A stretch of DNA of 64,000 nucleotides, taken from the NCBI GenBank assembly GCA_963745075.1, contig CAVUWV010000009.1, forward strand, positions 96,001 to 160,000, written 5' to 3'. A program made the position numbers and the translations under genes. The DNA is from Candidatus Hydrogenedentota bacterium. GTDB lineage: Bacteria > Hydrogenedentota > Hydrogenedentia > Hydrogenedentales > SLHB01. This document shows, one piece after another, positions 18,707-20,203 of the stretch (position 1 is the first letter of the stretch; each line of letters begins with the position of its first letter). The notes under the pieces were generated by a model. It did no database searches, was not told where the DNA came from, and saw only the letters and a list, made by a program, of their open reading frames with translations.

Positions 18707-18886
18707 ATGTCAAGAATAAGACTCGTGAGCCGGGTTCCCTTCGTCGATCCGTTGCTCCCGGCACCAGCTATTCAAGCGGAAACCCCGAAGGAGCGATACA
18801 AGACCTGTGAAGACGAGCAAACGTCCCTGATAGGCAAGGCCGCCTGCTACCGCACGCTGGTACAGGAGAAACTTACGGGCAAGTAG
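18707..18886 (+). CDS. Small paralogous peptide P1 (59 aa)
   Basis: Not in ORF track. AAAGGAG RBS; MSRIRLVSRVPFVDPLLPAPAIQAETPKERYKTCEDEQTSLIGKAACYRTLVQEKLTGK*. Confidence 0.85.
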   Translation: MSRIRLVSRVPFVDPLLPAPAIQAETPKERYKTCEDEQTSLIGKAACYRTLVQEKLTGK

Positions 18887-18994
18887 TCCAAACTCACGTT
18901 GAGAATTCTTGGAAAACAGGGGTCGAGTGGCAGTTCTCGTAGAGCGCTGTTCGCTACTTTCTTCAGTACCATGATGAAAGGCAAAGTATTCGCA

Positions 18995-19174
18995 ATGGAT
19001 AGAATTCGAAGCATGAGTCGTGTGCCATTCGTCGAGAATCGCAGGCCCGCCGTGGCGGTCTGGCAAGGGAACGCGGTCACCCACTTGAAGGAGTGTCTCT
19101 CGCACCAGACCACGGTCCGTGGCAAGAAGGAATGCTACGAGACGTACCAGGCGGAGAAAGCTGAGAAGCAGTAA
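18995..19174 (+). CDS. Small paralogous peptide P2 (59 aa)
   Basis: MDRIRSMSRVPFVENRRPAVAVWQGNAVTHLKECLSHQTTVRGKKECYETYQAEKAEKQ*. Start chosen by alignment to paralogs. Confidence 0.82.
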   Translation: MDRIRSMSRVPFVENRRPAVAVWQGNAVTHLKECLSHQTTVRGKKECYETYQAEKAEKQ

Positions 19175-19200
19175 CAGGGATTCGTGGTGAGGTATGAGTC

Positions 19201-19380
19201 ATGCATAGAATCAAGTCTGTCAGCCGCATTCCCGTCGCCACACAGCCGCGATACGCGGCGCTTCCCCCTTCTGCATGGGAGCACTACAAGGCTTGTGTAA
19301 ACGAGCAATCGACGTTGGCTGGCAAGAAGGAGTGTTTCCGCAATTATATCGGGGAGCGTTCCGAGGATAAAAACCCATAG
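19201..19380 (+). CDS. Small paralogous peptide P3 (59 aa)
   Basis: Not in ORF track. GAGG RBS; MHRIKSVSRIPVATQPRYAALPPSAWEHYKACVNEQSTLAGKKECFRNYIGERSEDKNP*. Confidence 0.85.
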   Translation: MHRIKSVSRIPVATQPRYAALPPSAWEHYKACVNEQSTLAGKKECFRNYIGERSEDKNP

Positions 19381-19395
19381 TCTGGAGAGGGTGCG

Positions 19396-19701
19396 ATGTA
19401 CTGGGTGTTCGCGTTTGGCGCAGGTATCGGCGCCAACGGAAACCAGCTCCGCGCTTGGACGCACGCTAATGGTTGCGTGGGCAATAGACTTGCCTATCTA
19501 CTCACGGACGGCGAAACGGTTAACGGGATGGGCGAGTTACCCGTGCGGGAACTTTATTGGGAAACCCTCCAATTGATGCCGGTCGATCCCGATTACAATG
19601 ACTTGTATCAATTGCTTTTAGACGCAGCAGACAATCTCGGTATGTCGCCAGCAGAAGTGAGCAATATCCAGAATGGTTGTGAGGCCGTCGAGATCGACTG
19701 A
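19396..19701 (+). CDS. Stand-alone/orphan copy of the M4 protease C-terminal domain (no HExxH)
   Basis: VGNRLAYLLTDG, LYWET.QLM, LLLDAADNL and CEAVEID* are shared with the end of 16889..18652; GGAGAGG precedes the ATG. Confidence 0.8.
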   Translation: MYWVFAFGAGIGANGNQLRAWTHANGCVGNRLAYLLTDGETVNGMGELPVRELYWETLQLMPVDPDYNDLYQLLLDAADNLGMSPAEVSNIQNGCEAVEID

Positions 19702-19752
19702 GTGCGGAAGTCATTCAACCCAACTTACCTTAACAGAAAAAGGAGTGCTCGA

Positions 19753-19932
19753 ATGCGCAGAATCAAGTCTGTCAGCCGCGCCCCGTTTGCCGGTCCGATT
19801 CCTGCGGCGGCAATCCGGGAGATGGAACCGTGGGAGTACTGGTTGGCCTGTCTGATCAGTCCCCTATCCTGGATAATCGGCATAAAGGGATGCTACTGCT
19901 CCTATAGCCATGATTGGACACAAGAAACTTAG
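19753..19932 (+). CDS. Small paralogous peptide P4 (59 aa, divergent hydrophobic core)
   Basis: AAAGGAG RBS; MRRIKSVSRAPFAGPIPAAAIREMEPWEYWLACLISPLSWIIGIKGCYCSYSHDWTQET*. Confidence 0.85.
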   Translation: MRRIKSVSRAPFAGPIPAAAIREMEPWEYWLACLISPLSWIIGIKGCYCSYSHDWTQET

Positions 19933-20017
19933 GAGGGCTTCGGATACCGGTGCGTCAGCCGCTCGATCGTACACCGGGCGACGGATGGGTGCGGGCGAAA
20001 CGAATGAGATCTCACTG

Positions 20018-20203
20018 ATGGGTAGAATCAAGCGTGTGAGCAGCGTTCCGTTTGTCCATGGTTCGATTCCGGCGCCTGCGGTTTTGCCGGAAACTGATTC
20101 GGAACGCTACAAGGCGTGTCTTGACAAGCAGACCACGCTCGGGGGCAAGGTGGGCTGTTTTGTCGACTATATGATCGCGCTTTCCGACAAGAGCCAACTG
20201 TAG
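20018..20203 (+). CDS. Small paralogous peptide P5 (61 aa)
   Basis: MGRIKRVSSVPFVHGSIPAPAVLPETDSERYKACLDKQTTLGGKVGCFVDYMIALSDKSQL*. RBS is weak. Confidence 0.82.
   Translation: MGRIKRVSSVPFVHGSIPAPAVLPETDSERYKACLDKQTTLGGKVGCFVDYMIALSDKSQL

Follow-up and report, generated by a model that had tools for sequence, protein, structure and literature searches.

Five small peptide genes and their family

The window analysed here is the whole stretch of 64,000 nucleotides at G000:C9:96001-160000, from a Candidatus Hydrogenedentota bacterium whose assembly (G000) comprises 6.8 Mb in 36 contigs; the labels G, C and L denote genomes, contigs and loci, respectively. Downstream of an M4 peptidase gene it contains five small genes, P1 to P5, all on the forward strand, the products of which begin with a common N-terminal segment, referred to here as the leader. 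This leader is a new variant on an orphan family of two-cysteine hairpin peptides linked to an M4 peptidase. With the stop codons included, P1 occupies positions 18707-18886 (59 residues; leader 18707-18769, MSRIRLVSRVPFVDPLLPAPA; two-cysteine core from 18770), P2 18995-19174 (59 residues; leader 18995-19057, MDRIRSMSRVPFVENRRPAVA), P3 19201-19380 (59 residues; leader 19201-19257, MHRIKSVSRIPVATQPRYA), P4 19753-19932 (59 residues; leader 19753-19812, MRRIKSVSRAPFAGPIPAAA) and P5 20018-20203 (61 residues; leader 20018-20080, MGRIKRVSSVPFVHGSIPAPA). The N-termini, in the same order, are MSRIRLVSRVPF, MDRIRSMSRVPF, MHRIKSVSRIPV, MRRIKSVSRAPF and MGRIKRVSSVPF, and the leaders end in PAPA, PAVA, PRYA, PAAA and PAPA. 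An earlier note on this DNA had claimed such a shared leader with proline-rich ends, and the open reading frame (ORF) translations and the alignment contain it exactly as claimed. The common pattern is M-x-R-I-[KR]-x-[VM]-S-[RS]-x-P followed at a distance by P-A-x-A, and the alignment columns identical in all five peptides are M1, R3, I4, S8, P11, P18, A21, C34, G43 and C47.

The gene preceding this array (16850-18652, forward strand) encodes a zinc peptidase of the M4 (thermolysin) type, with Pfam matches to Peptidase_M4_C (1.5e-23), Peptidase_M4 (1.6e-9) and FTP (5.7e-8); its true start is likely the ATG at 16889 (MRKVLL...). A Sec-type signal and an FTP/PepSY propeptide precede its catalytic domain, which contains HEFTH. 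That it carries a Sec-type signal had been noticed before, and an N-terminal 9-residue hydropathy maximum of 2.51 agrees with this.

The peptides are the products of real coding genes and make up an orphan, genus-level family, since they have an aligned start, match a family hidden Markov model (HMM), are preceded by Shine-Dalgarno motifs and show far fewer nonsynonymous than synonymous differences in their cores (pN 0.14 vs pS 0.67 in 61 core-matched cross-locus pairs). Among the 142,608 six-frame ORFs of G000, the HMM of P1-P5 had 8 matches at E <= 1e-15, the next standing at E = 0.055, which greatly exceeds chance expectation; five of the 8 are the genes in the window and three follow another M4 gene, on contig C18. 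The family was found in 5 of 135 Hydrogenedentota genomes, all belonging to one genus (G000 and four of the five other genomes there), and in none of the approximately 129 genomes of other Hydrogenedentota genera. The copies number 8, 12, 10, 9 and 1 per genome, 40 in total, and all are in tandem arrays, with 5-12 paralogues per array. The family statistics given below refer to 39 aligned members.

These 39 copies have the aligned start position in common, while L033:4168 lacks a start codon. The latter ORF (4168-4341 on G104:C243) reads W-T-N-I-R-S-V-S-R-R at the aligned start, and its C-terminus diverges. The copy is probably decaying, in a genome without an intact M4 gene of the linked clade described below. 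The sequence AAGGAG stands 8 nt upstream of the P1 start, and motifs of the GGAG/GAGG type are seen by eye, uncounted, at ~6-12 nt upstream in most of the 39 copies, those of P2 and P5 being weak. Longer upstream starts were dismissed, since the Shine-Dalgarno motifs and the aligned methionine favour the short forms. The public gene call of P2 begins at the internal Met7 (P0007; 53 residues, six short) and that of P5 at an upstream ATG (P0003; 97 residues, 36 long). In a promoter and terminator scan of 16400-20400, sites were no more frequent than in shuffled sequence.

Several core types are present, and that of P5 appears to be the most conserved across genomes. The core of the P4 subtype is tryptophan-rich and hydrophobic (e.g. 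WEYWLACLISPLSWIIGIKGCY), those of the other subtypes being polar; further copies of it are at L001 7493-7669 and L032 12244-12423, in addition to 19753-19932 in the window. A membrane-active or immunity-like role is conceivable for this subtype.

When 1.84 billion representative sequences were searched exhaustively with a profile, 22 matched at E <= 0.001, none of them with a classical signal peptide. Nineteen of them are proteins of 43-97 residues with the same build; the other three are repeat proteins and were taken as spurious. Nothing below E 0.02 was found in Pfam for P1-P5 and the 39 members (best of any family 0.021), and the Pfam bacteriocin families had no match in the 39. There were likewise no matches in NCBIfam for P1-P5 or in PADLOC for the 39 members, and the nearest clusters in the ESM Atlas are unnamed, with scores <= 0.90. 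The best match of a sequence profile to the Protein Data Bank (PDB), NF-YB at E 0.067, was taken as chance. A metagenome search with P5 yielded only L038, a word match in the wrong frame rather than a relative, and among public sequencing runs four DNA runs appeared at small shares (0.06-0.08), with no RNA run listed. A literature search, mostly at the level of abstracts, returned no description of this peptide family or of an M4-linked leader of such a type.

Anatomy and modularity of the leader

The leader is 21 residues long in 29 of the 39 members and contains two conserved islands. The first comprises R3 (67%), I4 (82%), K/R5, V/I7, S8 (76%), R9 (81%) and P11 (60%), and the second P (92%), A (85%), any residue, and A (90%). 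Its net charge is about +3.7, against -1.1 for the core. P5 and P4 were modelled with AlphaFold2 from the family alignment. In the P5 model residues 1-26 are coil (predicted local distance difference test, pLDDT, ~61), followed by helices at 27-37 and 41-59 (pLDDT 80-90); P4, with helices at 26-35 and 38-58, is still a hairpin despite its tryptophan-rich core. Over both models the leader coil has a pLDDT of ~61-67. In the models, then, the leader is disordered, without packing on the hairpin; the earlier note had named an N-terminus packed into the fold as a finding that would speak against a tag, and residues 1-25 are predicted as unpacked coil. C34 and C47, one on each hairpin helix, are invariant in the 39 members and are presumably joined by a disulfide. 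Foldseek gave no match against the PDB at E <= 0.001.

A Sec signal peptide has an n-h-c architecture, in which the hydrophobic (h-) region spans approximately 7-15 residues. By hydropathy no such region was found in any of the 39 leaders: the 9-residue Kyte-Doolittle maximum is 0.52 at the median (range -0.28 to 1.40; cf. the M4 signal above), and uninterrupted hydrophobic stretches reach 6 residues at most, with a median of 2 for the longest in each leader. The twin-arginine translocation (Tat) consensus is [ST]-R-R-x-F-L-K with an h-region behind it; a relaxed form of the motif occurs in two leaders, both of them spacer-less, from G104 and without an h-region. Double-glycine ends (G[GAS]), prepilin motifs of the type G|F-T-L-x-E and lipoboxes were each found in 0 of 39. 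The earlier note had listed the Sec h-region, the Tat, double-glycine and prepilin features as absent, and with the exception of the two relaxed Tat motifs this holds in the 39 members. Judged by its residues, the leader is none of the Sec, Tat, double-glycine, prepilin or lipoprotein signals.

The earlier note had also named a motif no better conserved than the core in a larger alignment as a finding that would refute its reading, and the outcome depends on which pairs are compared. Among the five window peptides the mean identity is 0.55 for the leader and 0.29 for the core, and among the distant paralogues (core < 0.3; n = 296) it is 0.41 and 0.23. Family-wide, that is in all 741 pairs, the values are 0.39 and 0.38, and in pairs with core identity of 0.6-0.8 (n = 55) they are 0.41 and 0.68, so the leader is the better conserved part in the window and among distant paralogues, is no better conserved in the family as a whole, and is the less conserved part in orthologue pairs. 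The 61 core-matched pairs yield a dN/dS of 0.34 in leaders and 0.10 in cores, the latter value being biased downwards by the selection of these pairs on core identity. Leader and core identity are uncorrelated (Spearman 0.03, p 0.38, 741 pairs), the leader remaining at ~0.4 throughout. Furthermore, one leader type, [M/V]-P-A-I-K-C-V-S-R-R-x-D-G-R-R-x-I-P-A-x-A, together with a nearly identical 5' flank, is joined to two types of core in genomes G106 and G107, and this points to an exchange of leader and 5' untranslated region within arrays. Copies of the GTG-started leader subtype are located at L032 11435, 11978, 12545 and 13211 and at L034 275-457 and 1229-1405. Because of the coil model, the uncorrelated identities, the one leader on two cores and the missing features of known signals, the N-terminal 19-21 residues can be regarded as separable from the core.

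Direct reading of the sequence also verifies an identity of 21 nt between P3 (19207-19227) and P4 (19759-19779), agaatcaagtctgtcagccgc, which had been pointed out before. At identical residues, codon identity is 40% in leaders vs 54% in cores (741 pairs), which argues for a local event behind the 21-nt identity rather than a property of leaders in general; the identity fits local gene conversion. An RNA-level or DNA-repeat cause was rejected, synonymous-site identity being lower in leaders than in cores.

In our reading of the alignments, a few leader positions would be under one family-wide constraint while the rest vary freely and are exchanged between neighbouring genes, and the cores would be under subtype-specific constraints. 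Such a pattern is expected of a shared processing or targeting module placed on diversified mature peptides. The proposal that the leader is a recognition or export tag survives in this narrower form of a separable module, and not as a general, lineage-specific secretion tag. A leader-only profile retrieved from G000 just the 8 family members (E <= 8e-5; next 0.22), and across six genomes from the genus the known arrays accounted for 33 of 35 matches at E <= 0.05, the other two being marginal and partial; the search that the earlier note had suggested, for other ORFs bearing the leader, thus found it on no other cargo in these six genomes. Since the profile retrieves family members only, we regard the leader as a family-specific module.

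The linked M4 peptidase, the leader boundary and competing explanations

The M4 proteins linked to the arrays form a distinct clade, with 11 database relatives at 59-73% identity, after which identity falls to <= 43%. Five arrays have an assembled upstream side, and four of these, from three genomes (the window, G000:C18, G106:C44 and G107:C154), start 55-90 nt beyond the end of an intact M4 gene with the same orientation; another two arrays run up against contig ends. By Pfam, in 26 window ORFs and 10 flanking ORFs, the M4 peptidase is the sole neighbour common to the loci. The other window neighbours include a thioredoxin reductase, a URO-D-like protein and a 2-oxoacid:ferredoxin oxidoreductase, and those of other loci include an aldo-keto reductase, an alanyl-tRNA synthetase and a rhamnogalacturonan lyase. 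The thioredoxin-reductase-like gene (15602-16546, reverse strand; Pyr_redox_2 5.9e-55) lies divergently upstream of the M4 gene, at the window locus only.

Within the window array, 19396-19701 on the forward strand is a remnant of the M4 C-terminal helical domain, open over 101 codons (Peptidase_M4_C 8.7e-6, profile positions 83-165 of 165). Two further C-terminal remnants, 71-72% identical, are at 5479-5817 and 6842-7090 of L033 (G104:C243). Such remnants consist of the last 85-115 codons and lie inside or at the head of peptide arrays, and this placement suggests that arrays expanded as units made up of the M4 3' end and peptide genes were duplicated.

The boundary between leader and core is marked by P at -4 in 36, A at -3 in 33 and A at -1 in 35 of the 39 members. 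At +1 stand F (14), V (10), I (6), A (3), S (2), L, Y, E and H (1 each), so that a bulky hydrophobic residue follows in 32 of 39, as would suit an M4 substrate; thermolysin-type enzymes prefer bulky hydrophobic residues at P1'. The predicted junction between propeptide and mature enzyme, the autoprocessing site being placed by alignment only, reads N-P-L-[AVG]-A-x-A followed by [IVR] in 13 of 13 M4 proteins of the linked clade (the two of G000 and the 11 relatives), and A-x-A is absent from it in 7 of 7 outgroup M4 proteins shown.

From these features we tentatively propose, with a probability of roughly 0.4, that the leader is a cleavable pro- or leader segment on bacteriocin- or pheromone-like peptides and is probably cut by the linked M4 enzyme; in this proposal we infer the cleavage and the enzyme responsible for it, as well as the disulfide bond, the export of the peptides and their biological activity. 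The leader would be a family-specific, intrinsically disordered cationic segment, typically of 21 residues, with the islands [R]-I-[KR]-x-[VI]-S-R and P-A-x-A, attached to helical hairpins of ~38 residues that have two invariant cysteines and fall into several core types. It would be cut after P-A-x-A, just ahead of the bulky hydrophobic residue, most likely by the co-transcribed, Sec-exported M4 peptidase. Because A-x-A is found at both junctions, the enzyme may use one kind of site for its own release and for that of the peptides. The products released would be hairpins of ~38 residues, presumably disulfide-stapled and bacteriocin- or pheromone-like.

Several observations weigh against this proposal. 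The fifth array, G104:C243, contains nine peptide genes (eight with a start codon) and only the two M4 remnants, and the other M4 protein of G104 is a 42%-identical paralogue of 1170 residues that also occurs in the peptide-less genome G103; because G104 retains its nine genes without an intact copy, the clade M4 is not strictly required for their retention. Four members, found in G104 only, have spacer-less leaders of 14-15 residues, and the database relative P0014 lacks the N-terminal island. The placement of the autoprocessing site, mentioned above, is a weakness as well, and alanine at -3 and -1 is the rule for signal peptidase I and no requirement of M4 enzymes. Since the M4 protein is exported by Sec, enzyme and peptides would meet only if the peptides are exported too, and no transporter, secretion or peptide-modifying gene was found in 26 of 37 selected ORFs (window positions 1-42000) and 10 flanking ORFs elsewhere; the inspection of neighbouring genes for export machinery that the earlier note had suggested thus turned up none at the arrays scanned. 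No immunity gene was found in the same 26 window ORFs and the flanks of the other loci. A two-gene array at a contig start, L035 (G107:C334; 240-611), is followed at 838-6470 by reverse-strand ORFs which, from the ORF ends only, read as flagellar hook-associated or rod-type proteins; this adjacency is probably coincidental, though it is the sole array beside any export apparatus.

A bolder version of the proposal seems doubtful to us, namely that the leader represents a new class for small secreted peptides: a 21-residue cationic tag without an h-region but with two short islands for recognition, which would bring two-cysteine helical hairpins through the envelope by neither Sec, Tat nor a double-glycine ATP-binding cassette (ABC) transporter, and would be removed between P-A-x-A and a hydrophobic residue by a dedicated M4 enzyme that uses the same motif for its own release from the propeptide, in a diderm, uncultured phylum.

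Among the alternatives, we consider it unlikely that these are cytoplasmic small proteins with a basic, disordered tail (e.g. for nucleic-acid or membrane binding), the M4 linkage reflecting only the history of a duplicating cassette. The missing export signal, the spread of arrays through duplication of the M4 3' end with peptide genes, and the persistence of the G104 genes without an intact M4 would all agree with it. Two invariant cysteines on hairpin helices combined with diversified tandem paralogues are, however, typical of extracytoplasmic peptides; the boundary of P-A-x-A and a hydrophobic residue is strongly conserved; and four arrays in three genomes keep an intact same-strand M4 gene.

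The leader could also be a degenerate Sec- or Tat-type signal, in which the basic island would serve as n-region and I-P-A-x-A as c-region for signal peptidase I, with a short polar h-region and inefficient or chaperone-assisted export. It resembles Sec signals in its basic N-terminus and in its small residues at -3 and -1 with a helix breaker (proline at -4) upstream, which fit the -3/-1 rule; its length is mostly held at 21 residues, and the G000 genome encodes TatC and several S26 signal peptidases. It differs from them in lacking an h-region, as the hydropathy and run lengths above indicate, and in spacers that are either charged (ENRR, SDGRR, NEER) or, in four members, absent. The relaxed Tat motif is restricted to two leaders, and the hydrophobic residue at +1 in 32 of 39 is no requirement of signal peptidase I. 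On balance this explanation is improbable.

Another improbable alternative is that the tail is retained and that the peptides regulate or inhibit the M4 enzyme by placing a substrate-like P-A-x-A-[FVI] in its active-site cleft. Other metalloproteases do have N-terminal-tail inhibitors, as with the serralysin inhibitors Inh/APRin, and both the tight linkage to a specific M4 clade and a flexible N-terminus with a motif like the enzyme's own junction speak for such a role. Arrays of 5-12 diverged paralogues are nevertheless hard to explain for one enzyme, G104 has kept nine genes while lacking an intact M4 of the clade, a recognisable signal for reaching the exported enzyme is lacking, and there is no sequence similarity to solved proteins (best E 0.067). 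Improbable as well is a leader of ribosomally synthesised and post-translationally modified peptides (RiPPs) that a modifying enzyme and/or a transporter from elsewhere in the genome would recognise, the M4 enzyme being the final leader peptidase only: a leader module common to diversified cores, the tandem multi-precursor arrays and the disorder predicted by AlphaFold2 would suit it, but the 26 window and 10 flanking ORFs contain no radical-SAM, YcaO, LanM, RiPP recognition element (RRE)/PqqD or ABC-peptidase gene, the genome has a single marginal C39 peptidase match (23.7 bits, on a different contig), the cores have one folded scaffold in common rather than hypervariable sequences, and the leader profile retrieves no precursors elsewhere.

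Comparison with other peptide systems and implications

The closest parallel in build to the proposed M4-processed precursors is gallocin A (GllA1/GllA2), which has a disordered leader of 23 residues and a disulfide-stapled alpha-helical hairpin, the leader ending in Gly-Gly and being cut during export by a dedicated ABC transporter (PMC10100652). The likeness extends to the short precursor, the disordered leader of ~21-23 residues, the two antiparallel helices with two cysteines and the adjacent related genes, and the models of P5 and P4 display the same set of disordered leader, two-helix hairpin and cysteine pair. The present family differs in its P-A-x-A leader end, in the absence of such a transporter from the scanned neighbours, in its M4 partner and in its origin from a diderm-type uncultured phylum.

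In linkage, the arrays resemble the PapR/NprB pair of Bacillus cereus, in which PapR is reportedly a secreted signalling peptide matured by the linked M4 neutral protease NprB. PapR is also said to carry a normal Sec signal and to be paired with a gene for its own cytoplasmic receptor. A small peptide gene linked to an M4 gene is common to both, and extracellular trimming is a feature of PapR; unlike PapR, the present peptides have no Sec signal and come as 5-12 paralogues per array, and no regulator gene was seen among the scanned window ORFs. The plant alpha-hairpinins and vicilin-buried peptides are also helix-loop-helix hairpins with cysteines, and Foldseek ranked leader peptides of Jug r 2 and Ana o 1 first, at a non-significant level (E 3.3, TM 0.45). 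The alpha-hairpinins have two disulfides, formed by CxxxC pairs, and an unrelated origin.

Gene callers mis-start peptide genes of this kind, P2 being called short and P5 long. Unless export bypasses Sec and Tat, what remains is an orphan, genus-level peptide family of modest significance. To our knowledge, the phylum Hydrogenedentota has no cultured, genetically studied members. If the M4 enzyme cuts the leader, the pairing of leader and protease would be one that is absent from the literature searched, mostly at abstract level, and the genus would have a compact system of one protease with 5-12 natural substrates and a boundary motif of four residues. New disulfide-stapled hairpin peptides could also be drawn from it, and if their export bypasses Sec and Tat, an unrecognised route of small-peptide export would operate in these bacteria.

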